Below, piece by piece: positions 986 through 16,953 of a DNA stretch of 64,000 nucleotides. Source of the stretch: Anaerolineales bacterium (GTDB taxonomy: Bacteria; Chloroflexota; Anaerolineae; Anaerolineales; Villigracilaceae); contig DATHTH010000137.1 in the NCBI GenBank assembly GCA_035463495.1, positions 418 to 64,417 on the forward strand. The letters run 5' to 3'. The first letter of the stretch is position 1; the number at the start of each line of letters is the position of its first letter. Under the pieces are notes generated by a model. The model had not been told where the DNA came from. It searched no databases and saw nothing but the letters and a program-made list of their open reading frames with translations. The position numbers were made by a program, and so were the translations under genes.

Positions 986-1003
986 GAAATTCTCCTATCC
1001 GAC

Positions 1004-1866: not shown

Positions 1867-1934
1867 ATTATCTTCCCGCCGAAATAAAGACTCCCCCGCC
1901 TTCGGGGGAGTCTTTTACTGTCCGAGTGGACAGT
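1867..1934 (-). promoter_or_regulatory. Motif A promoter copy 1 (two palindromes + -10 GATAAT)
   Basis: + strand: ACTCCCC-cgccttcg-GGGGAGT 1890-1911 and ACTGTCC-gagt-GGACAGT 1917-1934. Minus-strand GATAAT at 1867-1872 lies 17 nt from the palindrome. Confidence 0.75.
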
Positions 1935-2012
1935 TGATCCTCAATCTCATCCGGTGAATTGCTTTCCGTTTCTCTATTCTTTTCAAGCTCAGTGGCATAC
2001 CCGCGAGAAAAT

Positions 2013-2966
2013 CTACGCTGCGTTTTCTGCGACAATCCCTTGTACCTGCTCCCGAGAGTCGACAGGAGGCGACTTAAGGGCCTTCCGGCTCAACAGGATT
2101 GCCAGCGCGACGAGAGCGATCGGCAAGGAACCAATAAAACCCACGATCGTGGGACCGAGCAACAGGTTTGGTTCTCCTTGGACGAAAAACAGGGAGATCG
2201 CGGCAATGCCATTGATCGCTCCATGACCAATGACCGCCGGCCAGACACTGCCGGCGCGCAACGTCGCCCAGCCCAGGAACGTTCCCAACACAAACGTAAA
2301 CCAGGTCATGGCGAGGATGCCAAGCCAGGGGGCGCCCGGATACTCTAGACCATAGTTATGTCCCATCGCGATGACCGGTGCATGCCACAATCCCCAGATC
2401 ACTCCCATCCAGACCATGGTCGTTCGCCCCCCGAGTGGTAACAGCTTAGGCTGAAGATAAGCACGCCAGCCAAACTCTTCGCCCAGAATAGGAATGGCGT
2501 TCAAGAGCGGAGCGATGAGCACAGCCGTGATCGTCTGCGTGATGACGACCACCCAGGGGCTCAGCGTCGGGACGGCTTGACCTGTCGCCTCAGCAGAACT
2601 CTCCAGCATCGTCTGGATCGCTGAGAGGGATGTGTCATAAAACTGGGGAAATAAGGCAAAGAAAACAGCCATCCCTGCAAACGTAAACAAAGCAGGCGCG
2701 ATCCAGGTTATGATCCAGTAAGGCCAGCCCTGCCGGAATTTCGGTTGCAGGTAGAGATCCTGCCATCCTTCCCTTGTGACGAGGCGCGTGAGGATGTTCG
2801 CCAGGGCAGGCGCGCCCATATAGCCGACAGCAAGCAGCGGAAGAGCATACGGGTTCCCCGCCAGACCGCCGGTCAAATAGATTGCCAGCGCCGCAAGCCA
2901 GGCAATGCCAAAAGCGAACGCGATGAAGATTCGAACGCGTCTCCAATCCACTACGCTTGTATCCAT
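2013..2966 (-). CDS. CPBP family intramembrane metalloprotease
   Basis: LGEEFGWRAYLQPKL, WGLWH and GHGAIN motifs; GGAGG RBS. Confidence 0.92.
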   Translation of the reverse strand: MDTSVVDWRRVRIFIAFAFGIAWLAALAIYLTGGLAGNPYALPLLAVGYMGAPALANILTRLVTREGWQDLYLQPKFRQGWPYWIITWIAPALFTFAGMAVFFALFPQFYDTSLSAIQTMLESSAEATGQAVPTLSPWVVVITQTITAVLIAPLLNAIPILGEEFGWRAYLQPKLLPLGGRTTMVWMGVIWGLWHAPVIAMGHNYGLEYPGAPWLGILAMTWFTFVLGTFLGWATLRAGSVWPAVIGHGAINGIAAISLFFVQGEPNLLLGPTIVGFIGSLPIALVALAILLSRKALKSPPVDSREQVQGIVAENAA

Positions 2967-4468
2967 TTTTTATCCTCCGTGGTTGCGGTCAAGTATACCT
3001 GTCTTCTGCGAGCATCTGCGATCCAGTACAGCTTTACGAGCCCCTGTATATAGTCCGGTAAGGAGCCGACGATCATCAGGATGGCGATGTCGGGAAGAGT
3101 CCGAAACATCGTGATCAGTTGATAGGTAAAGTTAAACCTGTATCCCATAAAAGCCTTGACCTGATGAAAAACGATAAACAGAATCAATGTAGGGATGAGA
3201 AAACTGATTCCAATGTCCATGACTCGCCGCGCCGTTGACCATCCTCGGGCGCGCTCTGCCCAGCCACGTAAAGAGAGCAAGTTTCGCGCCTGATATGCCG
3301 CCAGCAGAAGGACAAAAAGCAGCAATATCCATCCGATCTGTTTTACAGACCAACCTGTAGAAACGGAAGGCACAGGCCGTCCGAGCACAATTGCCTCCAC
3401 GCCCTTAAAAATTTGTGGAGCCGAGATGAAATGGTCCAGCATGTAACCCTGGTTAATGAGCAGCACGATGCTCATGTCGCGCAAAGGGTAGATGTCCACG
3501 AAGGTCTTAAAGGTTTCGTTCGCGCCGCCGTGGAAGACGTGTCCAGGCTCAACCATCCAGCCCATTCCATATCCCTGTACGGGCGCAAAAAGCATATCCA
3601 TTCCCTGGATCGACAATACCCGATTCCCTTCATAGATACCGCCGCTGTCCATCGCGATGGCATAGTGCGCCATGTCTTCTGCTGTCGAGATAATAAAGCC
3701 TGCGCTCACCTCATACACGCGGTGCGGCTGGCGCTGCGGGACCGTGAAACCAAAGAAGCGACTATGGCCCTGCGAGAGCCCGTTGGCACGCGCAATGACA
3801 GGATCGGTGTATGTGCGAGTCATCTCCAGAGGATCGAATATGTTCTCCTGGATGTATTGCTCGTACGACACGCCGGTGACGTTCTGGACGATCAATGCCA
3901 GCACATCGTAGCCAACATTAAAGTACTGATGTTTCGCGCCAACCGGCGCCGTCAGCCGCGCGGACGCAAGTGCGCGAACGGCATCTTCCTTCGATGCATC
4001 TTCAGCAAGGATCGCAGTGAAGCCAGCTTCGGAAAGCCCGCTGGTATGATGCAGGAGATGATTGACCGTAATTTTTAGGGAGGCATCCTCGTCCGCCACC
4101 CGGAACCACGGAATATACCTGCGGACCGGGTCGTCTGGGCTGATCTTGCCTTGCTCAATCAACTGGGCAATTGCCAGGCCGGTAAACGATTTGCTCTGCG
4201 AGCCAATGTACATCGGAGTCTGCGGCGTCATCGGGCGGTTCTGACCGGCTGTGCCATACCCTTTCAGATAGACGATATCCGTCTTCGATGTAACCGCGAG
4301 TGAAATCCCCTGAATTCCGTGCTTGGACATTTGTCCGGTGATGAACGCATCCAGGGCTTCTGAGTCGATCCGCGTATCCAGGCTGGGACCGGCCTGAGCA
4401 AACATGCCGCCAACCGACAGGCTGAAGGCTAAGCAAAGTGTTAGGAATGGCATATATATTCTATGCAT
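2951..4468 (-). CDS. Serine hydrolase (beta-lactamase class C / PBP-like) with signal peptide and C-terminal TM anchor
   Basis: SxxK (GSQSKSFT), YxN (YFN) and HGG motifs. ATG 4468 is best spaced from the GGAG RBS; the track starts at TTG 4474. Confidence 0.88.
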   Translation of the reverse strand: MHRIYMPFLTLCLAFSLSVGGMFAQAGPSLDTRIDSEALDAFITGQMSKHGIQGISLAVTSKTDIVYLKGYGTAGQNRPMTPQTPMYIGSQSKSFTGLAIAQLIEQGKISPDDPVRRYIPWFRVADEDASLKITVNHLLHHTSGLSEAGFTAILAEDASKEDAVRALASARLTAPVGAKHQYFNVGYDVLALIVQNVTGVSYEQYIQENIFDPLEMTRTYTDPVIARANGLSQGHSRFFGFTVPQRQPHRVYEVSAGFIISTAEDMAHYAIAMDSGGIYEGNRVLSIQGMDMLFAPVQGYGMGWMVEPGHVFHGGANETFKTFVDIYPLRDMSIVLLINQGYMLDHFISAPQIFKGVEAIVLGRPVPSVSTGWSVKQIGWILLLFVLLLAAYQARNLLSLRGWAERARGWSTARRVMDIGISFLIPTLILFIVFHQVKAFMGYRFNFTYQLITMFRTLPDIAILMIVGSLPDYIQGLVKLYWIADARRRQVYLTATTEDKKWIQA

Positions 4469-4504
4469 GGGCAAATCTCCTTAAAGAGGAAGCAGCGCTT
4501 TCCA

Positions 4505-4732
4505 TCAAGGAATGCTCAAATGTGGAAAACAACAACTCAACACCGCCAGTCCTAGCGCAAGGAAGAGAATGTTAGGCATGAGTAGCGAATGCCAGAGATC
4601 ACGTATAAACGGAAAGAGAGCCGTGCTTCCAAAGTTACGATACATTTGCGGATTTGCGATCGCGAGATAGACATGCGTAGTCCATCCCAGAAGGTACCAG
4701 CGGGCCACAAATCACCGGATCGCACTCTTCAT
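4505..4732 (-). pseudogene. Truncated membrane-protein gene with in-frame TGA at codon 7
   Basis: ATG 4732 with GAGG RBS gives MKSAIR*FVARWYLLGWTTHVYLAIANPQ... The TGA at 4712-4714 is in frame with track ORF 4505..4708. Confidence 0.5.
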
Positions 4733-4749
4733 AACAATCCTCGATTTGA

Positions 4750-6186
4750 CTAGTGTCCAATTTGAATAGTTCGAATTAGATCGTCCAGGACCCTCAGGGA
4801 GGGCACAAAATCAGACTCTGGCTGAACGTTCAATTGGATTAATTGTTCACCGAGTAGAGTCGCCCATTCTGCAACCGGATCGTAGCCCGGATCACTGCAT
4901 GCGGCGCATGCCGGTGGCTCGGTCGGAAAGAGGCCTGTTTGAACAGGGAAGAACGCGGCGATATAAAACTGCTCATCGTTGGTCAGGCCCTGGAAGGTAT
5001 AAAAGACCTGCTGGTCCAGCACAGGGTCGAGGCCCTGTGTGTAGTAGCTCAGGTAACGAACCCCACGTCCGCCCGCAAACTCGATGATCCGCGGCTGGGC
5101 GCAAAAGGCTTGTTTCATGTTGATCCAGGGCAGGAATGGCAGCACCGGTTCTCCCGTGATGGGTTGCGTGCAGCGGGCAGGGTCAATGCCCGTCTCGAGC
5201 AACTCGCTCAGCGCCTGCATCTGGTTGACGAAGCCCGCGGGGCTGTCATCCCCAAAGCCGCGAAACTCGGCGGTTTGGAAGACCCGCACCTGCGCGACGC
5301 GGTCCTCGATAGGCAGCAAAGGTAGATCATAGGGGCGCCCAGCGTGGAATCCCCAGAAGCGGATCTGGACAAAACTGGGCTGTGCTTCGGCAAACAGTGC
5401 CTGCTCGTTCACGGGGACGGCGGGAACCATCCGCGCTTCGACCCAGGGTGCCAGGGCAGGATCATAGGAAAGGTAGATGGTTTTGTCAAATTCGAACCAG
5501 CTTATCGTTTTGAATTTTGAAGCAGGTTGAGCTGTCAGCGGTAAGAAGGCAAAGGAGCCTGTCACCGTCTGGCTCAGAGCCTCCAGGTCAGGTCTGGCGA
5601 GGTCGAGATCGGACGGATGAAAACGCAGCGTGAAGAGGATATTCTCATTCAAAGCCATCAGCACCCGCGAACTTAACAAACCCGGCACCGGATCCAGGAT
5701 TTCCGCAGGATTCCCGCCAAGCATCCCGACCTCACGCTCGATCGGGACTTGCGTATCGCCGAGGGAGCGTAGATATGCTTCCACCAGCGGAGTAAGCCCG
5801 CTTTCCTGGGGCGCCACCTGTGCAGTGATTTCCAGGCTGACTCGCACAGGGTTGGCGCTATCCTCCAGGCCGGGACCCGAAAGATCGATGATCCCTTCGG
5901 CTGCCCGGCTTTCATCGAGAATGAACGTTCCGGGATAGGCGAAGCAGTAGCCCCATTTCTCATCTACATAAACACCCAGGTCGGTCACCTGGCAGGTCAG
6001 GGGAAGGGCGCTGTCTGAGGGCGTCGGCGAAGGGGCCAGCGCACTAAATATCTCAGGCGTCGGCGTGGCGAGATCAACGACCGTCTGCGGCGCTTCTGCT
6101 TTAAGCGGTACACAGGCGCTGATTATGATCATCCCGAGGCAGATGGACCTGGCTATCGAAATTTGCGAAGATCGTTTGAGAAACAT
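4750..6186 (-). CDS. Hypothetical lipoprotein
   Basis: Lipobox IIISAC followed by a Pro/Thr/Ser linker; GGAGG RBS before ATG 6186. Confidence 0.75.
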   Translation of the reverse strand: MFLKRSSQISIARSICLGMIIISACVPLKAEAPQTVVDLATPTPEIFSALAPSPTPSDSALPLTCQVTDLGVYVDEKWGYCFAYPGTFILDESRAAEGIIDLSGPGLEDSANPVRVSLEITAQVAPQESGLTPLVEAYLRSLGDTQVPIEREVGMLGGNPAEILDPVPGLLSSRVLMALNENILFTLRFHPSDLDLARPDLEALSQTVTGSFAFLPLTAQPASKFKTISWFEFDKTIYLSYDPALAPWVEARMVPAVPVNEQALFAEAQPSFVQIRFWGFHAGRPYDLPLLPIEDRVAQVRVFQTAEFRGFGDDSPAGFVNQMQALSELLETGIDPARCTQPITGEPVLPFLPWINMKQAFCAQPRIIEFAGGRGVRYLSYYTQGLDPVLDQQVFYTFQGLTNDEQFYIAAFFPVQTGLFPTEPPACAACSDPGYDPVAEWATLLGEQLIQLNVQPESDFVPSLRVLDDLIRTIQIGH

Positions 6187-6249
6187 AGGAACTCCTCCGT
6201 ACAACTCACGGCTACAGACATTCCCTTCTTCGAGGGCTCACCAACATAT

Positions 6250-6882
6250 TCAACGGCCTTGTAGCATGCCTTCTGCACGCTCCCGGATGCCGAGCAGCAT
6301 GCCGCGCGCCATAATGAATTCACCCGGACGGATCACATCCCAGAACCAGCCCTGCGCGGCGTTGCGCGAGCGCACGATCAGGCGTGTTGAACCGTCTGCC
6401 TGTGGCAGGAGCACAAATTGCCAGACCTCGATCCATTCGCCGTTTTCCTGGTGTCCCAGGATCATGGCGCGATCAGACTCCAGGAGTGCTACCTCGTAAG
6501 GCGGCGGACCTGATGTTCCCGGGCACATCTTGACTGAATCACCTACTTTCAGGTTTTGCCACTTTGCATGGATGCGGTCGGCGTTGCTTATTTCACAACG
6601 CAGAATATTCGTCTCGAACCACTCGTAGCTGTACCATCCGCCGCGTTCTGCCCCGATCTGCACGATCCACGGGTAGATCTCTTCGGGTATGGCATGGATG
6701 GTTATTGCCCGCGTGTAAGAGATGCGCGGAGAGGGAACCAGCTCATCCCCTGGCAGTGAGACCGCGACCTCATTCGTGCTGGCGCCCCAGCGGTCCATCC
6801 ACGGCAGCAGGGCAAACATGACGATAATGGCGAGAATGCCGAGAACGGTTAAAACACCAACAGTCTTGAGAAATCTTTTCAT
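6250..6882 (-). CDS. SRPBCC-like protein with N-terminal TM
   Basis: YPWIVQIGAERGGWYSY signature; AGGAG RBS before ATG 6882. Confidence 0.7.
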   Translation of the reverse strand: MKRFLKTVGVLTVLGILAIIVMFALLPWMDRWGASTNEVAVSLPGDELVPSPRISYTRAITIHAIPEEIYPWIVQIGAERGGWYSYEWFETNILRCEISNADRIHAKWQNLKVGDSVKMCPGTSGPPPYEVALLESDRAMILGHQENGEWIEVWQFVLLPQADGSTRLIVRSRNAAQGWFWDVIRPGEFIMARGMLLGIRERAEGMLQGR

Positions 6883-6915
6883 TCTGATCTCCTGGATTGA
6901 GATTTTCCTGTTTCC

Positions 6916-6982
6916 ATCATAGTTGCTGGAAATAAAAGACTCCCCCACCGTGAGGGGAGTCTTCACTGTCCGAGTGGATAGT
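6916..6982 (-). promoter_or_regulatory. Motif A promoter copy 2 (-10 TATGAT)
   Basis: ACTCCCC-caccgtga-GGGGAGT 6939-6960, ACTGTCC-gagt-GGATAGT 6965-6982; TATGAT 17 nt away. Confidence 0.75.
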
Positions 6983-6999
6983 GGAGGCAAATGATCAGT

Positions 7000-7722
7000 T
7001 TATGCTTTCAGGGGATCGAAAGTCGGTTTCGGCGGCACAGGGATTTCCGCGATGCGCTCGACGGCGCACCGCGCCCCGGCACGGATCAGCTCACGGGATT
7101 TTTGTGGGGAAAGAGAAAGAACCGGCACCTTGTCGAAAACTCCCGCCACATGCGCGAACAAAGGCTCCTTCGTGATCACCGCTTCGATGTTCGGCACGAA
7201 TGCCTGCGCTTCGCGGACTGCTGCCCGATCGCCACTGATGAATATAAAAGGGATGTCCAGAGCGGCGGCGGCGGCAGTTGTCATGCCGATCTCTCCAATA
7301 TCCTCACCATTCCACACCAGGCCCGGAAAAAGCATATGAGCCTGGGGCGCAGCCGGAGTGCCCTGCTTTGCATGCAGCCCGACCATCATCAGCGCATCGA
7401 AGGATGGATCCATGCCGGCAGGTCCTCCATCCCCGGCGCCCATCACGAGCTTGCAGTCCGGATGCAGGAGCTCCACATCCAGCCCGCCCGGAAAACCGCA
7501 ATGTCCATCCCATGCCCACACTTCTGTCGCGCCTGCCTCCAGGACGCCCTCAACCAGAGCATTCAATTCCAGGGTTGCCAGTTTTCGGGCTTGCAGATAG
7601 AACGGTCCATACTTACCCGGTATATATTCCCTGTCGTAGCTGTCATGCGTGAAACTGCACTGGTGGATTTGATCCACCACCCCGGCGGTACCTTCCAGAT
7701 CGCAGACCACGTAGATTTTCAT
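7000..7722 (-). CDS. dppA: M55 family metallopeptidase (D-aminopeptidase DppA-like)
   Basis: MKIYVVCDLEG start with DxE, DGH and H-A..AH metal ligands; AAGGAG RBS. Confidence 0.85.
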   Translation of the reverse strand: MKIYVVCDLEGTAGVVDQIHQCSFTHDSYDREYIPGKYGPFYLQARKLATLELNALVEGVLEAGATEVWAWDGHCGFPGGLDVELLHPDCKLVMGAGDGGPAGMDPSFDALMMVGLHAKQGTPAAPQAHMLFPGLVWNGEDIGEIGMTTAAAAALDIPFIFISGDRAAVREAQAFVPNIEAVITKEPLFAHVAGVFDKVPVLSLSPQKSRELIRAGARCAVERIAEIPVPPKPTFDPLKA

Positions 7723-7748
7723 GTTTTCTCCTTTTCTCTGTTTTTTAG

Positions 7749-7816
7749 AGGATATGTCTCTCAAACAAAAAACTCCCCTGCCACAGGGGGAGTTTTTGAC
7801 TGTCCGAGTGGACAAA
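7749..7816 (-). promoter_or_regulatory. Motif A promoter copy 3 (-10 TATCCT)
   Basis: ACTCCCC-tgccacag-GGGGAGT 7772-7793, ACTGTCC-gagt-GGACAAA 7799-7816; TATCCT 17 nt away. Confidence 0.72.
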
Positions 7817-7838
7817 TGTAATGATGCTACTTTCTTCA

Positions 7839-8402
7839 TCAGGCGAGGTGTTTCGCGTTCTTGAGCTTTGCCTTTCGCGTGCGTGGCTTGTAACACTGCC
7901 AGTAGACCCTGTGCTCGTCATACTGGGTGCGGGCTTCCTTCGTTTCTGCGGGATGACCGACATAGATCATGCTGAGAGGCGTCACATCTTCCGGTATTCC
8001 AAGGGTTTCCCTGAGGGTTTTGATCCGGCTGGGGTACGGATACACACCAATCCAGACGGCTCCCAGCCCCAAGCCCGCCGCAGCGATGAGAATATTCTCT
8101 GTGGCAGCGCTGCAATCCATCACCCAGTGGTCACGGGCGGCTGAATTGTTCGCAATGCGGATATTGCCACAGACCATAATGGCAGCCGGCGCATTGTATC
8201 TGGCAAACAGGAATTTATCACGGATATGATCGAGCACCTCCTCTTCCGTTACCACGATGAATTCCCAGGGCTGACTGTTACAGGCTGTCGGCGCCGACAT
8301 GGCAGCTTTCAGCAGGAGAATGAGAGTCTCACGATCGACAGGCTGGCGACTGTAATGCCGGATGCTTCTGCGGCTGAGAAGGATATCGAGGATGTCAGGC
8401 AT
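7839..8402 (-). CDS. Nitroreductase family protein
   Basis: RRSIR, APTACNSQPWEF and GLGAVWIG motifs. Confidence 0.92.
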   Translation of the reverse strand: MPDILDILLSRRSIRHYSRQPVDRETLILLLKAAMSAPTACNSQPWEFIVVTEEEVLDHIRDKFLFARYNAPAAIMVCGNIRIANNSAARDHWVMDCSAATENILIAAAGLGLGAVWIGVYPYPSRIKTLRETLGIPEDVTPLSMIYVGHPAETKEARTQYDEHRVYWQCYKPRTRKAKLKNAKHLA

Positions 8403-8940
8403 CTGTGTTCTGCAATGAGTACCTCCAGTACCGGATCCCGTACCGGGTGAACTCTTCAGCAAGTGTCATTCCGATTTTTTCCGCCACGCGCCGGGAAGCC
8501 AGGTTGCCTGCCCGGATCAGGCTGATCAGTTGCGGCAGATGCAAAACGTCGAAGGCATAATCACGCACAGCCGCTGCCGCTTCGGTGGCATAGCCCCTGT
8601 TCCAGACGTCACTGCGGAAGTCATAACCCAATTCAGCGATCTGCATTTCATCCACTTCCATTTGTTCCAGGCCGCAATCGCCGATGAGCTCACCGGTATC
8701 CTTGTGAAGCACAGAGAACAGCCCATACCCGAATTGCTCTTGATGGTCGAGATTTCGCTGCAACCAGCGCTCCATCTGCTCATGAGTAAAGGGATCATGA
8801 TCGAATGCAGCCATCACTTTTGCATCGGCAAAGATCAAATGTAGTGCATCAAAATCCGACGCCTGCATCGGGCGCAGGATCAGGCGTTCCGTCTCGAGCA
8901 CTCCTGGGCTAAACCTGTGGCTATTAACTTTTGTCGTCAT
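8395..8940 (-). CDS. GNAT N-acetyltransferase (RimJ/RimL type)
   Basis: LETERLILR, WNRGYATEA and N.AS.RVAEKIG motifs. Confidence 0.9.
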   Translation of the reverse strand: MTTKVNSHRFSPGVLETERLILRPMQASDFDALHLIFADAKVMAAFDHDPFTHEQMERWLQRNLDHQEQFGYGLFSVLHKDTGELIGDCGLEQMEVDEMQIAELGYDFRSDVWNRGYATEAAAAVRDYAFDVLHLPQLISLIRAGNLASRRVAEKIGMTLAEEFTRYGIRYWRYSLQNTDA

Positions 8941-10508: not shown

Positions 10509-10566
10509 TGTTGCCTCCACATATCTGGAATGGAAGATTCTGCCTCGGTCATTTAACACCGGAATT

Positions 10567-10623
10567 ATTCTACACAACGGAAAAAAAGGGACTCCCCTGT
10601 CAACAGGGGAGTCTTCACTGTCC
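10567..10623 (-). promoter_or_regulatory. Motif A promoter copy 4 (-10 TAGAAT)
   Basis: ACTCCCC-tgtcaaca-GGGGAGT 10591-10612, ACTGTCC half-site 10617-10623; TAGAAT 18 nt away. Confidence 0.72.
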
Positions 10624-10657
10624 AAAAGTCTGGTTTGGTCGGCTGGATGGTTTTGAT

Positions 10658-11187
10658 TTATTTTTTCAGTTTCACCCAAAGCGCAAACAACATCAGGACC
10701 ACCCCGGTGAACCAGCCGCCAGGTGTGAAGCTGTCCGGTATCAACAAAGCAATGGCAACCCCTCCGGTCAGTAGTACGAGGGTTAATACCGCAAATTCCC
10801 ACATCCAATATAAAATATGAACAGAATGTAGTGCGTGCCCAGTGCAAACATGAATGCCGGGAAAAACCAGTTCAGCTTGTACAGGGCGACCGGACCGATC
10901 AGGAACAGGCTGAGAGGGGTCAGGATGGCGATCTGAAAAATCAACTGGTTCATTGGGTGCGCGCCGTCCAGGCCCATGGGGCGCCCGAGAATATGTACCG
11001 TCAGCAGGGTTAAGGGAAACGTCAGCGCGACGGCAAGCACCAGGGTGACCATCGCGGCTGAGGCACTCACCCAGGTGCCCAGAGCCGCAGAGCTCAGCCA
11101 GAAACCACCCATAATCCCCTGAGCGACCGAGCCGCGTAGATAGGCAGTTCGTACATCCTGCTGCGCCGAGCGGATATCTATATCCAT
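10658..11187 (-). pseudogene. Frameshifted membrane protein (possibly DUF7010-like), or a sequencing error
   Basis: The hydrophobic reading MDIDIRSAQQ...GTHYILFIF switches frame near 10805-10815 and continues as ...MWEFAVLTLVLLTGG...KLKK*. Confidence 0.6.
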
Positions 11188-11206
11188 GCCCTTCCACCTT
11201 ATGAAC

Positions 11207-11250
11207 ATTATAACGATAAAGGAATCAATACTCCCCCGTCGCGGGGGAGT
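11207..11250 (-). promoter_or_regulatory. Motif A promoter copy 5 (-10 TATAAT)
   Basis: ACTCCCC-cgtcgcg-GGGGAGT 11230-11250 (N7); perfect TATAAT 17 nt away; no distal palindrome. Confidence 0.75.
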
Positions 11251-11273
11251 ATTCTAATCATTTCCTAATCGGA

Positions 11274-12227
11274 TCAAGCGGTTCTCGGGCGCAGCGCCGT
11301 ATAGAACAGGTACACACCCACCAGGATGATCGCCACCGGCCAGAAGAGCTGTGAACTGTTGGCAAAGAATACGGAAGCAACCGCGAGCGCCGCCAGAACG
11401 ATGGTCACGATCCTTGCCCAGGGCTTGGCATGCCGCAGCCAGACGATGGCAAACGTCGCAGCCAGACCGCCCATCAGCAAGGCGTTGGCATACCCATCCT
11501 CGTTCTCGTCGCGGATCCAGCCGGCGATCGCTAATACGGCGATGACGGCAATCACGGCAATGGAGCCAGCCGGGATGATCGCCCACCAGTTCTCCTCGCT
11601 GCGAAGATATAAGACGAAGAAAGGCAGAGCAACCGCGAACAGGAAGATGGGACCGAAATACGCCGCATCGCGCCCGCCAGTGGACATGAGAGGAGCGATC
11701 CCTAATACGCCGGTGATATAGGCAACCAGCAATGCCCATGTTCGATTCCGGTTGTTGAGATAGACCAGCAGGAAGCTGCCTGCGATCATGAATAGGAACA
11801 ACGCGCCGATCCATTCGCCGCCGGTCGAGTCCACCAGCAGGGTCACCAGCGCCAGGAAGAGCATCACCCCGCCGGGAATCAGCGCCCACCAGTTGTGGGT
11901 ACGGTCCCTGAGATAGGCAACCGCGAACGGGATGACGAGACCAACGAAGAGCGGTGTCGCCACCGCCGCGCTATCCACATTGTTGGTGGCCAGCGTGATG
12001 GTCATAGCCAGTCCGCCAAAGACACCTGCGGGAAAGAGCCAGCCCCATTGCTTCCAGCCGCTCATGGCAAATTCGATGACCGCCAGAAGGCTGACAAAGG
12101 CAAAAGTCCAGATCCAGAATTGAGGGTCTGAGAATTGGTCGATGTAGCCCATTTGCTGCGCCAGCGCTACTCCGCCTGCCGCGATTAACAGAAGTCCCCA
12201 GAAGAGACCCGAGCGATTGATTTTCAT
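11274..12227 (-). CDS. Multi-pass membrane protein with LiaF/LiaI-like N-terminal TM hairpin and internal repeats
   Basis: SGLFWGLLLIAAGG.AL N-terminus; repeated WWA(L/I)IP(G/A)G units; AGGAGG RBS. Confidence 0.7.
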   Translation of the reverse strand: MKINRSGLFWGLLLIAAGGVALAQQMGYIDQFSDPQFWIWTFAFVSLLAVIEFAMSGWKQWGWLFPAGVFGGLAMTITLATNNVDSAAVATPLFVGLVIPFAVAYLRDRTHNWWALIPGGVMLFLALVTLLVDSTGGEWIGALFLFMIAGSFLLVYLNNRNRTWALLVAYITGVLGIAPLMSTGGRDAAYFGPIFLFAVALPFFVLYLRSEENWWAIIPAGSIAVIAVIAVLAIAGWIRDENEDGYANALLMGGLAATFAIVWLRHAKPWARIVTIVLAALAVASVFFANSSQLFWPVAIILVGVYLFYTALRPRTA

Positions 12228-12255
12228 GGGAAATCCTCCTTTGATTTCTATGCTT

Positions 12256-12322
12256 AGTATACACATCCAGAGCGGAAATGCCTCGTCCGGGAGAAGGGTC
12301 TTTCCCTGTCCAGGTGGACAGC
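12256..12322 (-). promoter_or_regulatory. Motif A promoter copy 6, degenerate (-10 TATACT)
   Basis: CCTGTCC-aggt-GGACAGC 12305-12322; degenerate proximal site ATGCCTC-N8-GAAGGGT 12278-12299; TATACT 16 nt away. Confidence 0.55.
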
Positions 12323-12352
12323 GGCTCCCCAACCGTTACAGCTTCACGGCAA

Positions 12353-13564
12353 TTACATCTCGATCTTTCTGAACCTCCAGACTGCAAGAGCAAAGAAGAA
12401 CCCCGCATACGCTGACAAGATCATGGTGGGGATGACAATCGAACTCAGATCCAGTCCCCGGATCAATATGTTCTGAAAACCGTTCATTGCCCAGGCAGAG
12501 GGCATCAGCTTTCCGATAGCTGCAAAGGCACCACCGGTGACCTCTAGCGGGAACCAGGTGCCGCCCAGCGCCGAGAACAGGAACATGGCGATCATAGAGT
12601 ACAGGATGACCTGGTCTTCCGCCTTCGCGATGACGCCAATCAACAGTCCCATGGAAGCCACCCACAGGCCCAGTGTCACTGCTACAAACAATACAGCCAA
12701 AGGCTCACGCAGATAGTCTACGTTGAGCACCCACTGCCCGAAGAGCACAAGCATCGCCGTTTGTAAGAAGACAACAATGAACATTGCCAGCATGTGCCCG
12801 GCGATGATCTCCCATGTTTTCATGGCGGTCGTGATCAGTCTCTGCACGGTGCGGCTCTTGCGTTCCTGCACCAGGACCTGGGCTGAAGTCACCATGCCGA
12901 AGATGGCAAACTGGACCAGGATCCCCGGTGAAGCCTGGTTGTATGGGTTGCCGGCGTTCAAATCTTCTGATTCAGGCGAAACGGCGATAGCCTGTTCCAC
13001 GCGTACCATCGACAGGCGCGAGTTCACGTCCCATTTCCTCCAAGCCAGCTCGAAGGCAGGCATATATTCGGATGGGTCCTCCTGCACCTCGGCGGAGAGA
13101 CGAGCAATCTCCACGGCACTCATTAACTGTGAGACCGGCCCCCTCAGCAGCTGATAGAGTGAGTGTCCTTCCGCAGATGTGGGTTCCGAAATCAGCCGGA
13201 GTTGGTGGCCTACGGTCTCGCCCATCGAGGCCTGCTTGCTGAATCCCTGCGGGATGACCAGCACTCCACCCACATCACCCTGGTAAAGGGCCTTCATGGC
13301 GGCAGACTCCTCCAGCAGCTGGATGCGGATGTCATTCGAAAGGTCCAGCCGCGCGATAAGCAGCTTATTCAGGATCGCATCCGGTTCCGGATCAACAACC
13401 GCCAACGGAATGCGCTTGTCCGCATCTTCGTCATCGCCGCCGCGCCCCAGGGCAAACCCCATGAAGAATGTAAACACGATCGGCATGACAACCAGGAACA
13501 ACAACGACCGTTTGTCGCGGAACATCTGGGAAAGGTCTTTGATGGCAAGATCTAAAATTCTCAT
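12353..13564 (-). CDS. ABC-2 type exporter permease
   Basis: MRILDLAIKDL, ERKSRTVQRL and LGGTWFP..PSAWAMNGF motifs. Confidence 0.9.
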   Translation of the reverse strand: MRILDLAIKDLSQMFRDKRSLLFLVVMPIVFTFFMGFALGRGGDDEDADKRIPLAVVDPEPDAILNKLLIARLDLSNDIRIQLLEESAAMKALYQGDVGGVLVIPQGFSKQASMGETVGHQLRLISEPTSAEGHSLYQLLRGPVSQLMSAVEIARLSAEVQEDPSEYMPAFELAWRKWDVNSRLSMVRVEQAIAVSPESEDLNAGNPYNQASPGILVQFAIFGMVTSAQVLVQERKSRTVQRLITTAMKTWEIIAGHMLAMFIVVFLQTAMLVLFGQWVLNVDYLREPLAVLFVAVTLGLWVASMGLLIGVIAKAEDQVILYSMIAMFLFSALGGTWFPLEVTGGAFAAIGKLMPSAWAMNGFQNILIRGLDLSSIVIPTMILSAYAGFFFALAVWRFRKIEM

Positions 13565-13650
13565 GAATAGTCTCCGGATCTGCTGATCTTCTCCTCGGCT
13601 TGTCTCTTGTGTACTCAATGGGCGAACGATGAATGCACAAGCCGGCTGCC

Positions 13651-14931
13651 TTAAGCAAATCGTCTCTGGAACATCCGAGCGCCGATTGTGAACATGATAA
13701 GTCCCATCCCAACCAGGATCAGAAACGGCATCAGCACATCGCCAAAAGCTTGACCGTCCATCACGATCCGCCACAATTTGAGCACCCAGCCCTGGGGTGT
13801 GAAATTTGCGATCATATCCATAGCCGCAGGCATCCCGGCCGGGATATTGGCGGTGAACAGGCCGCCAAGCATGCCCAGCCCGGTGAGGGCGCCACCCAGC
13901 ACAGGTCCCCCCTGGCGCGTGCTTTTCACAAAGGAGATCAACAGCACGCCCAGTCCCGTCGCGGCGATAACCTGTCCAACCAGCGCCAAGCCGACACTCG
14001 CCGGGTCGCCCCACGTGATTCCAAAGGCATAACGTCCGGCAACCATCAACACCAGTCCCTGGAGGAGAACGGTGAAAAATACTGCCACGAACTTGCCTGT
14101 CAAGATGGAAGTACGACGGGTCGGTGTGGTGAAGAGGCGCGCCAGGGTCCCCTCTTCGTCTTCACGCAGAATCGACATCATGGAATAGGCTCCGGTGAAG
14201 AAGGCAAAGAAGATCATCTGCCCGGCCATTGTCAAGCCCATCATCTTTTGGACAGGATCGACGGCTGCTGTTTCCCCGGCAGAAGGAGCGACCATGACAA
14301 GCGCAGCCTTCTCCGGATGATGGAATAGATCGCGCTGGAAGTCGCGATACCAATCCCCGTAGTGTTCAATCCAGGCAGGAATGTCCGCTTGATCTGGTTG
14401 GATGCCGTTGGCACGCTGTCGCTCCATGATCGTTTGAAGGGCAATCCCGCCGCCTGCCACCGCATCGATCATCATGGTGACCATATCTTCCACAATCGCC
14501 GGCCCGATAGATAACGTCGGGTCGCTGACGATCAGCACCCGAACATCCTTCGCGTCGCTCAGATAGCGTTCCGTAAAGTTGTGAGGAACGATGACCGCGA
14601 CACCGATTTCCTGTCTGTCCACAGCGGCACGCGCCGCGGCCTCATCTGGATAATCCGAGGCGGTGATCCACGATTCCACGCTTTCGTCAAAAAACATGGA
14701 GCGGATGTTGTCACCGATCGGTTTGTCGAGCATGGAATCGGAGGACAGTCGGTCTGCATTGACGACCCCCACGCTAATCGGTGTCATGCTCACATCGCCG
14801 CCGGTCATCCCCCCGAACGCAAAGTAGATCAACCCCGTAAGCATCAACGGTGCTACGACCATCATCCCGATGGCAAAAGCACTGCGGAAGGAGCGCAACA
14901 AATCTTTAAGCGCAATGTCAAGGATTTTCAT
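13651..14931 (-). CDS. ABC-2 type exporter permease (paralog)
   Basis: MKILDIALKDL, EDEEGTLARL and TPQGW motifs. Confidence 0.9.
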   Translation of the reverse strand: MKILDIALKDLLRSFRSAFAIGMMVVAPLMLTGLIYFAFGGMTGGDVSMTPISVGVVNADRLSSDSMLDKPIGDNIRSMFFDESVESWITASDYPDEAAARAAVDRQEIGVAVIVPHNFTERYLSDAKDVRVLIVSDPTLSIGPAIVEDMVTMMIDAVAGGGIALQTIMERQRANGIQPDQADIPAWIEHYGDWYRDFQRDLFHHPEKAALVMVAPSAGETAAVDPVQKMMGLTMAGQMIFFAFFTGAYSMMSILREDEEGTLARLFTTPTRRTSILTGKFVAVFFTVLLQGLVLMVAGRYAFGITWGDPASVGLALVGQVIAATGLGVLLISFVKSTRQGGPVLGGALTGLGMLGGLFTANIPAGMPAAMDMIANFTPQGWVLKLWRIVMDGQAFGDVLMPFLILVGMGLIMFTIGARMFQRRFA

Positions 14932-14952
14932 GAAAGTCTCCGTGCTGGCTCT

Positions 14953-15891
14953 TCAATCCCTCAATGCTCGCCCCGTCAGATGCAGGAACACCGTTTCCAG
15001 GTTCGGTTCCCGGATGTCTACGGAGGTGATGCGCACGCCCGCCTCGGAGGCAGCCTCGAAAAGGCGCGGCAGGACCCGGTTGGAATCATCGACAAGCGCA
15101 GTGACCTTCCCATTCGTAGCATCGATCTTCCTGACCCCGTCTGTTGCTCCCCAGGCTGCGAGCACTTTCATCGACTCGACGTTGAGCGTCAGATCAATCC
15201 GTGTCTGCTCGCCGACCATCTGGATCAGCTCGGCATGGGTACCATAGGCGATCACTTTGCCCTTATCCATGATGGCAATGTGATGCGAGAGCTCAGCAGC
15301 TTCTTCCATGTAATGGGTGGTGTACAACACGGTCATACCCCGTCCGTTGAGCTCCTTAACGTTGTCAAGAATATGCCGGCGCGATTGTGGATCAATGCCG
15401 ACCGTCGGCTCGTCCATAATGATGACCGCAGGTTTGTGCAGCAGTGCCGCGCCGATATTCACCCGGCGCTTCATTCCCCCAGAAAACTTGCCCACGTGGT
15501 CCCTTTGACGGTCCGCCAGGCCTATGACCTCCAATACCTCATCGACGCGCCTTTTGAGCTCTGGCCCGCGCAAGCCATACATTTTTCCCCAGAAGATGAG
15601 ATTCTCATGCGCTGAAAGATCAGGATACAGAGCAATCTCCTGGGGTACCACACCCAGGCGAGCTTTGGCAAGTTCCGGCTCGCGGGTAACCGAATGCCCC
15701 ATAATACAGGCTTCGCCGCTGTTCGGCGCGAGCAAGCCTGAGAGCATGGATATCGTGGTGCTTTTTCCCGCCCCATTCGGACCGAGCAGACTTAATACCT
15801 CTCCGGCTTCTGCCCGGAAGGTAGTACCCCGGACAGCTTGAAAATCGCCAAAGGATTTATATAGATCTTGAACTTCAATCGCGAGAGACAT
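14953..15891 (-). CDS. ABC exporter ATP-binding subunit
   Basis: Walker A GPNGAGKS, signature FSGGMKRR, Walker B IIMDEP, H-loop TTH. Confidence 0.95.
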   Translation of the reverse strand: MSLAIEVQDLYKSFGDFQAVRGTTFRAEAGEVLSLLGPNGAGKSTTISMLSGLLAPNSGEACIMGHSVTREPELAKARLGVVPQEIALYPDLSAHENLIFWGKMYGLRGPELKRRVDEVLEVIGLADRQRDHVGKFSGGMKRRVNIGAALLHKPAVIIMDEPTVGIDPQSRRHILDNVKELNGRGMTVLYTTHYMEEAAELSHHIAIMDKGKVIAYGTHAELIQMVGEQTRIDLTLNVESMKVLAAWGATDGVRKIDATNGKVTALVDDSNRVLPRLFEAASEAGVRITSVDIREPNLETVFLHLTGRALRD

Positions 15892-15904
15892 AACATTCTC
15901 CTGT

Positions 15905-16846
15905 CTACGGTTTCTTGATCTTGTAGGCCGGGTATAAGAGCCAGGTTACAAACAGTCCAAAAATAAAGGTAGAGGAAGCTGTTTCGACCAAGTGACTCAT
16001 GCGCACACTGTTAGAAGGAATAAGAGAATTGGGCAGGATGTGACCAATATTCTGTGGTACGCTGAACATCAATCCCACGACCAGCGCCGTCTGCCAAAGG
16101 GATAGGCGTGAACCCCGTATGACCAGATACGCACCTGCCACCCAGATCAATGTGCGTACCAGTTGATACGGTGTCAGCAAGGGATCCGTTGTAAAGATAT
16201 GTGCCATTTGCTGGAGGAAAGGCAAGGCATCACCCGGTGATCCATAGAATGCGCGCACATCCGGGTTTTGCCAGGCGATGAAATAGCCCGCCGTGTAATA
16301 AAGAACCAGATAGGCCACATAGATCACCCCCAGTTTCCAGAGCCACTCCGTAAGCGGCATAGGCACGACATCTGGAATTTGGGGTTGCTCCGCAAAGGTA
16401 TAGACGCGTCCCATGATAAGGACAGCCAGCGGAATGAAGAGAAACGCAGTCGGAAGACCCTGCAGGAAGAGGCGGAACATCAGTTCGGGCCCAATAGTAA
16501 TCCCGAGTAGAAAATACCATGCCTCGAGCTGCGTAACCAGTGTCATGACAAGATAGAAAGCAACTGACATCGAAAGGATCAGTTTCCAGCCGCGCCAGCG
16601 TGAGCTATAGATCATCGACATGACCACCAGGACCGTAACCGCGCAAACGATCAATAGCGCAGTCGTCTGAGGGAAGGGGCCGGGCTCAGCAGGTGTTTTT
16701 GGCAGATACGTTGCAACCAGCCCTCCTCCAAGTGCAAACAAAATGAAGTAAAGGATCACCAGGACGAAGAAACTTAATAACCGGCGAATAACTTTACCAA
16801 TTGCCTGGACAGGGAGGGCCTGTCGAGCTGTACTCACAGTACTCAT
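15905..16846 (-). CDS. Hypothetical multi-pass membrane protein
   Basis: About 8 hydrophobic segments; AAGGA RBS before ATG 16846. Confidence 0.75.
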   Translation of the reverse strand: MSTVSTARQALPVQAIGKVIRRLLSFFVLVILYFILFALGGGLVATYLPKTPAEPGPFPQTTALLIVCAVTVLVVMSMIYSSRWRGWKLILSMSVAFYLVMTLVTQLEAWYFLLGITIGPELMFRLFLQGLPTAFLFIPLAVLIMGRVYTFAEQPQIPDVVPMPLTEWLWKLGVIYVAYLVLYYTAGYFIAWQNPDVRAFYGSPGDALPFLQQMAHIFTTDPLLTPYQLVRTLIWVAGAYLVIRGSRLSLWQTALVVGLMFSVPQNIGHILPNSLIPSNSVRMSHLVETASSTFIFGLFVTWLLYPAYKIKKP

Positions 16847-16883
16847 ATCCAATTCCTTTACGGGAGCCGAATCTGGTACTCTC

Positions 16884-16953
16884 AGTGTAATTGATCGAGA
16901 TGTGATACTACACCCGTCGCCGGGAGAGTATTCGACCTAGCCAGTTGGACAGT
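16884..16953 (-). promoter_or_regulatory. Motif A promoter copy 7 at the head of the array (-10 TACACT)
   Basis: ACTACAC-N9-GGAGAGT 16907-16929, GGACAGT 16947-16953; TACACT 17 nt away. Confidence 0.6.

Follow-up and report, generated by a model that had tools for sequence, protein, structure and literature searches.

An intergenic module of Anaerolineales that may unite a transcription terminator, a regulator-binding site and a -35-less promoter ahead of membrane and envelope genes

Results

Seven sites in a co-directional gene array

Throughout one part (1867-16953) of the window, that is, the whole 64-kb stretch of DNA analyzed here, a double palindrome recurs on the minus strand, each time ahead of a gene or operon. 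The double palindrome is real: a pattern search of the window matched palindrome 1 (H1; ACTGTCC-N4-GGACAGT) at 1917, 6965, 7799, and 12305 and palindrome 2 (H2; ACTCCCC-N8-GGGGAGT) at 1890, 6939, 7772, and 10591, and for either pattern four matches were reached in 0 of 100 shuffles. A relaxed search added one H2 match at 11230 and gave no further copy in the remaining 47 kb of the window. An earlier note on this DNA had described seven copies of the double palindrome. Seven sites do exist, but only three (c1 to c3) are complete; c4 lacks the left half of H1, c5 and c6 are half copies, and c7 is decayed. For the -10 hexamers and their spacing of 17 nt (18 nt in c4), the earlier description holds. 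Read on the minus strand, the copies are as follows.

c1, 1867-1934, minus strand: complete; H1 ACTGTCCACTCGGACAGT 1917-1934, H2 ACTCCCCCGAAGGCGGGGGAGT 1890-1911, T-run 1882-1889, -10 box GATAAT 1867-1872
c2, 6916-6982, minus strand: complete; H1 6965-6982 (left half CTATCC), H2 6939-6960, T-run 6930-6938, -10 box TATGAT 6916-6921
c3, 7749-7816, minus strand: complete; H1 7799-7816, H2 7772-7793, T-run 7763-7771, -10 box TATCCT 7749-7754
c4, 10567-10623, minus strand: right half of H1 only (10617-10623), H2 10591-10612, T-run 10581-10590, 18-nt spacer, -10 box TAGAAT 10567-10572
c5, 11207-11250, minus strand: H2 only (11230-11250, 7-nt loop), weak T-run, perfect -10 box TATAAT 11207-11212
c6, 12256-12322, minus strand: H1 only (12305-12322), -10 box TATACT 12256-12261; at the H2 position a non-palindromic conserved stretch ACCCTTCTC...GAGGC with no T-run and no hairpin signal
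c7, 16884-16953, minus strand: decayed copy at the array head; H1-like 16935-16953, H2-like 16907-16929, no T-run, -10 box TACACT 16884-16889

Since orthologous copies are present in related contigs, c5, c6, and c7 can be regarded as genuine variants and not as chance matches. The H2-only type of c5 is conserved in an ortholog in L032/L082, the c6 variant is likewise kept ahead of orthologs in L032, L050, L069, L081, L082, and L083, and better-preserved orthologous head copies corresponding to c7 are found in L082 and L083.

The co-directional array behind the copies (230-16846, minus strand) contains about 18 genes in seven predicted transcription units, each presumably driven by the copy named, and the majority of the genes encode membrane or envelope-associated proteins.

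c1 unit, minus strand: CPBP protease 1004-1834 (Pfam), 251-aa ORF 230-985
c2 operon, minus strand: 210-aa membrane protein 6250-6882, unknown ORF 4750-6204, beta-lactamase-fold hydrolase 2951-4474, CPBP protease 2013-2966
c3 unit, minus strand: M55 D-aminopeptidase 7000-7722
c4 unit, minus strand: GNAT 9582-10508, SnoaL-like protein 8924-9706, GNAT 8395-8964, nitroreductase 7839-8462
c5 unit, minus strand: 134-aa DUF7010-like ORF, start 11187, end 10783
c6 unit, minus strand: LiaF-like membrane protein 11274-12226
c7 unit, minus strand: unknown 313-aa ORF 15905-16846, ABC ATPase 14953-15891, ABC-2 permeases 13651-14931 and 12353 to ~13640

These are the target families listed in the earlier note, and genes of these families are also found repeatedly behind the motif in other genomes, where CPBP proteases, ABC and MacB/HlyD exporters, beta-lactamase-fold hydrolases, small membrane proteins, and GNATs recur. 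Across Anaerolineales, the module apparently labels a regulon made up of membrane and envelope genes.

An oriented motif of the order Anaerolineales

One scan of 185,579 species genomes (596 Gb) with a composite pattern of 21 fixed bases returned 79 distinct exact copies in 66 genome loci, compared to an estimated chance expectation of ~4. Nearly all of them came from Anaerolineales/Chloroflexota MAGs, with only a few per genome. The element is not peculiar to the locus in the window; it is an order-wide motif of ~75 bp that precedes more than 100 genes in uncultured Anaerolineales. Whereas the cores are conserved between copies, their loops and spacers have diverged.

Like Correia elements, REP/BIME sequences, and "mobile promoters", the module is a short palindromic intergenic repeat before non-homologous genes. 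It might be a selfish or mobile repeat (REP, MITE, "mobile promoter" cassette, or attC-like site) with a secondary regulatory role, as it is very rich in information for a binding site, its copies are grouped in arrays that differ between relatives in gene content in the manner of cassettes, and the motif is a branching point (loose ends) in assembly graphs. Unlike such repeats, however, it occurs in a single orientation with strict polarity to the downstream gene and in low copy number, its distance from the -10 box and the start codon is fixed, and relatives retain orthologous copies. Terminal inverted repeats, target duplications, an integrase, and GTTRRRY-type core sites are all absent. 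The diverged loops and spacers next to held cores point to selection rather than recent copying, and we consider a mobile repeat to be highly improbable. The orientation-independent, REP-like distribution considered in the earlier note is not what was found: the element always points to the downstream gene.

Promoter signature at a fixed distance from palindrome 2

Counted downstream from GGGGAGT in 78 copies, the bases at +18 to +23 are T(64) A(66) t n A(53) T(68), i.e., a sigma-70-type -10 box TAtnAT stands 17 nt past GGGGAGT. In the same copies, positions +10 to +17 showed no conservation and no TG motif, neither a TTGACA-like -35 hexamer nor an extended -10 was conserved, and +29/+30 were pyrimidine/purine, as expected at a start site. 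In a set of 110 copies, anchored on palindrome 1 only, the spacer between H2 and the -10 box was 17 nt in 91, 16 nt in 16, and 18 nt in 3 copies, whereas the H1-H2 spacer was 4 or 5 nt, both about equally frequent. As the latter spacing varies and the former is near-fixed, it is the H2 arm that is positioned relative to the -10 box. The -10 box is located on the strand of the element in 98 of the 102 copies with H1, and the opposite strand shows neither feature; a ribosome-binding site is present, and the start codon follows the -10 box at a median of 32 nt (interquartile range, 23 to 37 nt). Spacing and polarity are fixed in ~110 copies from related genomes, which supports the previously proposed promoter association, with GGGAGT at -35 relative to a sigma-70-type -10 box. 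In a Villigracilis relative, sparse metatranscriptome contigs show one end at the predicted start site and one in the U-tract; other contigs run through the module.

The earlier note had also offered promoters of a sigma factor with altered -35 specificity. An alternative sigma factor reading GGGGAGT as its -35 element, with palindrome 1 as an accessory, would fit the strict 17-bp distance of GGGAGT from the -10 box and the retention of this box in H2-only copies (c5 and its ortholog, L072). The -10 box is, however, of the housekeeping type TAtnAT and not of the ECF or another alternative-sigma type, and genes for sigma or anti-sigma factors do not recur next to the arrays, which makes this explanation improbable.

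The absence of a TTGACA-like -35 hexamer and of an extended -10 suggests that the promoter is silent at rest, and it is the missing -35 consensus, as the single basis, that would favor activation over repression. In the opposite case, the same module would form a constitutive promoter from the -10 box and the T-rich spacer, blocked until induction by a repressor bound to H1/H2. We rate repression as unlikely. In its favor, the operators would overlap the polymerase footprint or lie next to it, many -10 boxes are near-consensus, and tandem H1 units are also typical of cooperative repressors; but without a conserved -35-like hexamer or TG extended -10 basal activity should be low, and H1, centred around -65, falls outside the core promoter, a location seen more typically for activator or co-activator sites.

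Palindrome 2 as a probable intrinsic terminator

A role for palindrome 2 that the earlier note did not contain is transcription termination. We conclude that palindrome 2 very probably is an intrinsic terminator as well, because it forms a sense hairpin followed by a U-tract, its flanking pair covaries, wobble pairs are one-sided, and it is positioned behind a co-directional gene. Terminator-like calls were made at window copies, and the fold energies of c1 to c5 were -22 to -35 kcal/mol (z, -2.6 to -5.1), with two hairpins in c1 (-35.5 kcal/mol; z, -5.1). A T is present at +2 after GGGGAGT in 72 of 78 copies, and the T-run is asymmetric, with up to 9 T downstream versus 3 to 4 A upstream. The pair flanking the H2 core is A-T in 60, G-C in 23, T-A in 4, G.T in 10, and unpaired in 3 cases; the resulting 97% pairing was reached by 0 of 5,000 permutations. 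The non-Watson-Crick pairs in H2 are predominantly sense-strand U.G (17, plus 10 at the flanking pair), versus 6 antisense-only wobble pairs, plus 2 at the flanking pair. In the upstream-ORF survey, 83 of ~94 copies (~88%) followed the stop codon of a co-directional ORF, at a median of 47 nt.

Alternatively, both palindromes could act as DNA only, binding one oligomeric regulator through four ACTSYCC half-sites without any termination, so that hairpin potential, A/T flanks, and T-run would be by-products of a long symmetric operator. The four half-sites are indeed alike (ACTGTCC, ACTCCCC, and their complements), and the stem cores are invariant instead of covarying. The hairpin with its T-run also persists in head copies without a co-directional upstream gene, namely in L081, L082, and L083, and seven divergent cases in the survey likewise have no such gene; termination of an upstream gene cannot be the sole reason for its retention there. 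Furthermore, the loop (YnnYGRYR) is not free, as G occupies loop position 5 in 87 of 88 copies, which is explained neither by a plain terminator nor by a symmetric dimer site. Against a pure operator speak the covariation of the flanking pair through three Watson-Crick types (A-T, G-C, T-A), the asymmetric T-run, the location of ~88% of the copies directly behind a co-directional gene, and the excess of sense-strand U.G wobble (27 versus 8), a bias that a protein reading double-stranded DNA would not be expected to impose. We therefore assign the DNA-only explanation a minor probability.

Palindrome 2 as a terminator resembles known intrinsic (Rho-independent) terminators, bidirectional ones included, in its GC-rich stem of 10 to 13 bp, short loop, 3' U-tract, and 5' A-tract, in its location just past a co-directional gene, and in the covariation of flanking pairs. 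Unlike ordinary terminators, it has a stem core that is identical in more than 100 unrelated intergenic regions, a fixed distance of 17 bp to the next -10 box, and an invariant loop G. The 3' arm of the terminator appears to lie at the -35 position of the promoter that follows.

Palindrome 1 and the proposed working of the module

Palindrome 1 looks like a protein-binding DNA site, since its pairing is not kept and tandem repetition is possible. Its central pair is G-C in 49, A.C in 35, A-T in 12, and G.T in 6 copies, its loop carries a conserved A, and about a dozen copies possess extra H1-like units in tandem. The half-sites are spaced by 11 bp in H1 and 15 bp in H2, so that one dimer geometry cannot fit both.

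The lost pairing also bears on an RNA leader or attenuator, in which transcription would start upstream of palindrome 1, H1 would be a protein-binding RNA hairpin, H2 a conditional terminator in processive antitermination or attenuation, and the TAtnAT box no promoter. A small conserved hairpin followed by a terminator, and metatranscriptome contigs running through the module, would agree with this. However, nothing conserved and promoter-like lies upstream of H1, which often abuts the preceding stop codon; no alternative antiterminator fold is evident, no Rfam family matched, and a TAtnAT box that keeps its spacing and precedes a short leader and a ribosome-binding site is the signature of a promoter. 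We judge such a leader to be very improbable.

The explanation that we favor, with somewhat better than even confidence, combines terminator, regulator-binding site, and -35-less promoter in one module serving an envelope regulon. The module would be an oriented, compact unit of ~75 bp filling the gap between two co-directional genes. At its 5' end, palindrome 1 (CTRTCC-AYTY-GGAYAG) would serve as a protein-binding DNA site, at times in tandem, followed 4 or 5 bases on by palindrome 2 (aaaR-ACTCCCC-YnnYGRYR-GGGGAGT-Yttt). As part of the upstream gene's transcript, the latter would form a GC hairpin of 10 to 13 bp followed by a U-tract and end that transcript, while in the DNA its 3' arm would place GGGAGT at the -35 position, 17 bp ahead of the housekeeping-type -10 box TAtnAT. 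Transcription would probably start 7 nt past this box, 15 to 30 nt ahead of the Shine-Dalgarno sequence and ATG. Most likely, the promoter stays silent until, upon a presumed inducing signal, a regulator bound to either palindrome or to both brings in RNA polymerase, in the manner of class II activation. The terminator within the module would insulate each unit from read-through, so that units fire only via their own regulated promoter. If this reading is true, membrane and envelope genes are switched on one unit at a time.

A candidate regulator and related systems

According to the earlier note, the regulator was not adjacent. This is probably wrong, as a NarL/LuxR response regulator gene ends an operon that diverges from the array head, and the neighborhood of operon and array is conserved in related contigs.

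17667-31949, plus strand: phosphorelay operon, divergent from the array head
17667-21188, plus strand: multi-PAS histidine kinase
21181-21624, plus strand: receiver
21689-30160, plus strand: hybrid PAS/GAF kinase, 2823 aa
30157-31206, plus strand: receiver-HisKA_3 kinase
31296-31949, plus strand: NarL/LuxR response regulator (receiver plus GerE), last gene of the operon

The neighborhood is kept in five further contigs, with only 45 to 87% identity of their kinase; the NarL/LuxR regulator is 89 to 95% identical over more than 120 sequence clusters. Two observations speak against its role: in L082 the regulator and its HisKA_3 kinase are absent from the operon although the motif array is present, and an ortholog of the regulator was found within 8 kb of 0 of the 66 motif loci. 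Judged from sequence and synteny, the response regulator encoded at 31296-31949 is the best candidate for the regulator of the motif.

Class II promoters of the LuxR/NarL family (GerE helix-turn-helix) include that of LuxR at the lux box and the LiaR/VraR envelope-stress promoters; with DosR/DevR, boxes are in tandem and the proximal one overlaps the -35 region. Our module resembles LuxR/NarL class II promoters in its palindromic heptamer-type sites, of which the proximal one lies over the missing -35 and the second about two helical turns upstream, in its housekeeping -10 box, and in the receiver-GerE regulator encoded in a conserved neighboring operon. H1 has the CTG-N10-CAG dyad of lux-type boxes, and the targets include a LiaF-like gene as well as exporters. 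Differences are the half-site spacing (11 and 15 bp), the predicted double use of the proximal site as an RNA terminator, the unusually long multi-kinase phosphorelay in front of the candidate regulator, and the lack of a LiaS/LiaR pair beside the LiaF-like gene.

Promoters of the MalT/LAL type (STAND ATPase plus LuxR helix-turn-helix) are likewise -35-less with G-rich boxes at the -35 position, but MalT boxes are asymmetric decamers and not palindromes. A gene for an 878-aa MalT-like regulator, which is absent from the window, is preceded by the motif or a part of it in only three of eight orthologs: those in L053 and L066 have the motif, and the one in L072 has the H2 part.

Copies of the module in the window

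The minus strand carries every gene from position 230 to 16846 of the window, and an earlier note had claimed that a seven-copy promoter motif drives these genes. In pattern searches, palindrome 1 (H1, ACTGTCC-N4-GGACAGT) matched at 1917, 6965, 7799, and 12305 and palindrome 2 (H2, ACTCCCC-N8-GGGGAGT) at 1890, 6939, 7772, and 10591; at least four matches were reached in 0 of 100 shuffles for either pattern. A relaxed search of the window revealed an additional H2 at 11230 and no more module copies in the other 47 kb. The motif was found where it had been reported, read in the minus-strand direction, and seven sites do exist, but they are unequal, three being complete and the others partial or decayed. 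The −10-like hexamers described earlier were confirmed, as was their distance of 17 nt (18 nt in c4) from GGGGAGT.

Module copies c1 to c7 in the window (minus strand, 1867–16953)
c1, c2, c3: H1 and H2 complete
c4: left half of H1 lost
c5: H2 alone
c6: H1 alone
c7: array head; both palindromes decayed

The gene content given in the earlier note agreed with the Pfam analysis, which identified two CPBP proteases, a beta-lactamase-fold hydrolase, an M55 D-aminopeptidase, a nitroreductase, two GNATs, a SnoaL-like protein, a weakly LiaF-like membrane protein, and an ABC-2 exporter, besides several ORFs without a family. The LiaF-like gene (11274–12226), which lies between c6 and c5, is monocistronic; its Pfam matches were weak and below cut-off. 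A LiaFSR locus was rejected because this gene has no adjoining kinase or regulator. The window is a contig from a soil metagenome, and a tRNA scan found zero tRNA genes in it.

Several features were observed in and around the divergent intergenic region at the array head.

17108–17254, plus strand: hydrophobic ORF of 48 aa (called in locus L001)
17275–17291: terminator-like hairpin
17408–17381, minus strand: near-consensus promoter TTGCCA-16-TAAAAT aimed at the array
17375–17522: indel of 146 to 147 nt that distinguishes strains
17093–17420: extent of the divergent intergenic region

Distribution of the module among genomes

The composite pattern GGACAGT-N3-6-ACTCCCC-N6-9-GGGGAGT was scanned against 185,579 species genomes, and 79 distinct copies were obtained in 66 loci, compared to an estimated chance expectation of ~4. 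Nearly all matches came from MAGs labelled Anaerolineales, Anaerolineae, Chloroflexota, or Ca. Villigracilis, and a single GC-rich Arenicellales match looks like the expected chance match. Typical Anaerolineales motif arrays also occurred in non-Chloroflexota MAGs of study PRJNA951521, namely in Bacteroidota MAG195 (L008 and L024) and in Syntrophothermus MAG169 (L049, L064, and L066), which is probably due to mis-binning. The 8-kb loci contained ~110 distinct H2 in 530 kb, many with a slightly altered H1 or H2. Often several copies were present per locus, which shows that arrays like that of the window are typical. The module is a lineage-wide element and not peculiar to the window locus.

Between relatives, the arrays differ in entire promoter-gene units. 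Those present in some arrays and absent from others contain a methyltransferase, the M55 peptidase, the first 313-aa ORF, or the ABC operon; in L082, the array head has an inserted GGDEF gene. Gain and loss seem to affect a unit jointly with its module. A literature search on the motif and on promoter or regulon motifs of Anaerolineae returned no relevant description.

Promoter signature of the module

In ~100 copies, the consensus (C/A)CT(G/A)TCC-A-y-T-y was found 5′ of GGACAGT. The sequence 3′ of GGGGAGT was compared in 78 copies. It starts with a T-rich run, with T at +2 in 72 copies, followed by eight positions without conservation and by the sequence TAtnAT at +18 to +23 (64, 66, 42, -, 53, and 68 of 78). 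These frequencies match a housekeeping (sigma-70-type) −10 box. Positions +29/+30 show a bias for a pyrimidine followed by a purine, which would be expected of a start site located 7 nt past the −10 box. The −35 position is occupied by GGGAGT in every full copy and has no −35 consensus, and the TG of an extended −10 was absent across the 78 copies. The start codon, which is preceded by a Shine-Dalgarno sequence, follows the −10 box at a median distance of 32 nt (interquartile range, 23 to 37 nt). The −10 box lies on the same strand in 98 of 102 H1-bearing copies; on the opposite strand, both features are absent.

In a set of copies ascertained via H1 alone, the spacer between H2 and the −10 box was 17 nt in 91 of 110 copies, 16 nt in 16, and 18 nt in 3, whereas 4 and 5 nt were about equally frequent between H1 and H2. 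This difference indicates that it is the 3′ arm of H2, not H1, that is positioned relative to the −10 box. Transcript data were available as sparse, low-depth metatranscriptome contigs on the Villigracilis locus L021 (the runs that contain the window are low-depth DNA), and one of these contigs ends at the predicted start site. A search for RNA runs of L060 gave none. The promoter reading of the earlier note is supported by the comparative evidence on −10 box, spacing, and polarity across ~100 copies.

A mobile or repetitive origin of the motif was considered as well. The earlier note had named a REP-like repeat occurring irrespective of gene orientation as an outcome that would refute its reading, and the same-strand polarity of 98 of the 102 H1 copies speaks against it. 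Together with the low copy number (about 1 to 6 exact copies per matched genome), this strict polarity contradicts a REP/MITE-like element. An integron attC site was rejected since the motif consensus lacks the R″ and R′ cores (RYYYAAC...GTTRRRY), and no integrase was present among the window genes or the recurrent motif neighbours. An ECF or other alternative-sigma promoter is at odds with the −10 sequence TAtnAT, which differs from a distinctive element such as the CGTC of ECF promoters. The SOS/LexA box (H1 contains CTGT-N8-ACAG), CIRCE, CsoR/RcnR-type G/C-tract operators, sigma-54, and ECF promoters were considered as well and put aside, since either their sequence geometry or their gene content was unsuited.

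Palindrome 2 as a probable transcription terminator

A consensus scan gave terminator-like calls for c1 to c5, and the minus-strand RNA of these copies folds into hairpins of 10 to 13 bp with −22 to −35 kcal/mol and z scores of −2.6 to −5.1. A stable GC-rich hairpin directly precedes a U-tract in c1 to c4, weakly so in c5, and not in c6 and c7, for which folding gave no hairpin signal. No Rfam 15 family matched the window at the gathering threshold, and around c1 only chance-level matches appeared at E values up to 10.

The seven-base stem cores of H2 are invariant and therefore uninformative on pairing. The pair just outside the core, which was A-T in 60, G-C in 23, T-A in 4, G·T in 10, and unpaired in 3 cases, is 97% paired with three Watson-Crick types, a value reached in 0 of 5000 permutations. 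The first inner pair was C-G in 49, T-A in 22, and T·G in 8 copies. Among the non-Watson-Crick pairs of H2, 27 are U·G when read as sense-strand RNA (core, 17; flanking pair, 10), compared to 8 that wobble only in the antisense strand (6 plus 2 flanking); the commonest variant has the left arm ACTCTCC facing an unchanged GGGGAGT. In 83 of ~94 copies (~88%), H2 is located 3′ of a co-directional ORF, with a median distance of 47 nt from the stop codon, and H1 often adjoins the stop codon of this preceding ORF.

The folds, the covariation, the wobble bias, and the position after a gene argue for H2 as a sense-strand hairpin with a U-tract, and H2 agrees with intrinsic terminators in the sequence criteria of the latter. 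Taken together, these sequence features indicate, most simply, an intrinsic terminator of the preceding gene. Among the sparse metatranscriptome contigs of L021 there is a contig end in the U-tract (L021:2146), and other contigs cross the module. The head copies of L081, L082, and L083 keep the hairpin and the T-run without a co-directional upstream gene and do not fit a plain terminator. The 8-nt loop of H2 is asymmetric and reads Y-n-n-Y-G-R-Y-R; its fifth position is G in 87 of 88 copies (L005 to L070; in the window, e.g., 1897–1904), which is accounted for neither by a plain terminator loop nor by a symmetric dimer site.

Palindrome 1 and modular variants

The central pair of H1 was G-C in 49, A·C in 35, A-T in 12, and G·T in 6 copies, which means that pairing is not kept. 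The outermost position is A or C with about equal frequency, facing a fixed T, and the loop starts with a conserved A. About 12 copies carry one or two additional tandem H1-like units with a period of 17 to 18 nt. Judged by these patterns, H1 looks like a DNA site.

The H2-only copy c5 and the H1-only copy c6 are each conserved at orthologous positions in related genomes, which shows that H1 and H2 are separable. In c6, H1 and TATACT are retained and the place of H2 is taken by a proximal stretch with the conserved sequence ACCyyTC-N8-GAGGC and without a T-run, which may represent a second, gene-specific site. This variant is located 5′ of the LiaF-like gene in the window (12262–12304), in L032 (5451–5495), and in L050, L069, L081, L082, and L083. 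As the L032 fragment is not homologous to the c7 region, c7 was compared with L082 and L083 instead.

Genes downstream of the module

In other genomes, the families most often found downstream of the motif were CPBP proteases (12 loci), a 130-aa membrane protein (7 loci), the 207-aa family of the window gene 6250–6882 (6 loci), a 300-aa lipoprotein (5 loci), and beta-lactamase-fold hydrolases (4 loci). HlyD and MacB/FtsX exporter parts, ABC ATPases, DUF998, a metallo-beta-lactamase-fold protein, an esterase, and a squalene/phytoene synthase were also found, as were small membrane peptides of 55 to 67 aa. A family of peptides of 49 to 67 aa with a hydrophobic N terminus is repeatedly encoded by the first gene 3′ of a motif copy (L029, L037, L060, L066, and L081:2651–2800), and the two sequences compared, those of L029 and L081, share the acidic C-terminal motif ...T(D/E)EL.EMGV.LE... 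A membrane/envelope regulon is a fair description of this gene set, and a role in antimicrobial-peptide defence is a guess.

A candidate regulator in the divergent operon

The earlier note had stated that the regulator is not adjacent to the array. This is probably wrong, as a NarL/LuxR response regulator is encoded in the five-gene phosphorelay operon diverging from the array head. The products of this operon are, in gene order:

a multi-PAS histidine kinase
a receiver protein
a hybrid PAS/GAF kinase of 2823 aa
a receiver-HisKA_3 kinase
31296–31949, plus strand: the NarL/LuxR response regulator (NarL regulator)

The divergent arrangement of this operon and an ABC/LiaF-like/GNAT/SnoaL array recurs in five further contigs, whose first kinases show 87, 64, 47, 47, and 45% identity to that of the window. 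Synteny of the NarL regulator is kept in four of the five, and the neighbouring arrays carry the motif wherever the DNA allowed checking. In more than 120 separate clusters (formed at 90% identity) from many metagenomes, the NarL regulator itself is 89 to 95% identical at the amino acid level, whereas the neighbouring kinase is only 45 to 64% identical in the same relatives. Such strong conservation would fit an equally conserved binding site, and the NarL regulator is a candidate for the regulator of the motif. As the sensor kinases are rich in PAS/GAF domains, the inducing signal may be something other than envelope damage. Evidence counting against the NarL regulator comes from L082, in which the operon lacks both this regulator and its HisKA_3 kinase. 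It also counts against it that, within the 8-kb span of the 66 loci, an ortholog of the NarL regulator was absent near most motif loci, and that gene proximity does not equal binding. The NarL-type regulators located at most 8 kb from the motif in L025, L036, L040, and L043 were discarded, as their identity of 30 to 37% to the window regulator indicates that they are not orthologs.

A gene for a MalT-like LuxR-family regulator has the motif at its 5′ side in two MAGs, which would suit an autoregulated master regulator. A metagenome scan gave six further orthologs for which the upstream sequence was available; just one of them has even the H2 part, and the MalT-like protein is a weak candidate. 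No regulator family was found to recur beside the arrays of the 66 loci; apart from two divergent LacI-type genes, the search gave spurious ORFs.

Proposed mechanism

The combination of a good −10 box with the lack of a −35 consensus and of an extended −10 suggests that a regulator at H1 and/or H2 is probably needed for recruitment of RNA polymerase. Class II promoters of the LuxR/NarL family include the lux box, tandem DosR boxes of which the proximal one lies over the −35 region, and the LiaR/VraR envelope-stress promoters. The module resembles class II activator promoters of this family: the centre of H2 would be near −40.5, which is the class II position, and that of H1 near −65, and a regulator bound at H1 and/or H2 would recruit RNA polymerase. 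The built-in terminator of H2 would insulate each unit against read-through, and the insulated units of the array would respond to the regulator only. That the regulator activates and does not repress, where transcription starts, and that it does terminate at H2 are inferred. Overall, the module is probably a promoter that depends on a regulator and is fused to a terminator of conserved sequence. Comparative sequence data support the promoter reading, which is extended here by conservation throughout the order, a probable terminator within the module, and a NarL candidate in conserved synteny.

A more far-reaching proposal, which we put forward as speculative and rather unlikely in its entirety, is that one GC-rich palindrome does both, serving as RNA terminator of the upstream gene and, through its 3′ arm as DNA, as a regulator-bound −35 surrogate. 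H1 and this palindrome would make up a "terminator plus inducible promoter" cassette, portable and self-insulated, that Anaerolineales would have spread and maintained before dozens of membrane-protein genes in each genome. A single NarL-type regulator of deep conservation, receiving its input from a giant multi-PAS phosphorelay, would control all of these genes. If this dual use of H2 were true, the module would be a clear natural insulated promoter cassette and a useful genetic part for Chloroflexota.

Soils, sediments, and wastewater harbour abundant Anaerolineales, of which hardly any have been cultured. To our knowledge, nothing is known about their transcription regulation. The module provides a precise and testable promoter and terminator architecture for this order and marks out a regulon in a phylum about which little is known. 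It offers a computational handle on this regulon of mostly uncharacterised membrane proteins, such as CPBP proteases, exporters, and small peptides, and points to a concrete candidate regulator and sensory pathway.

Further features of the window

Two features outside the array were recorded. A short hairpin, ACTCCCCGGGGGAGAGT, at 51453–51469 has the arms CTCCCC/GGGGAG as in H2, without H1 or a −10 box, and is located ~115 nt past the 3′ end of a gene for a second NarL-type response regulator (51585–52244, minus strand). The gene at 42308–50839 on the plus strand has no relation to the motif and encodes a protein of 2843 aa that combines a glucoamylase-like domain with GH94 supersandwich and catalytic domains and is possibly a cyclic beta-1,2-glucan synthase-like enzyme.
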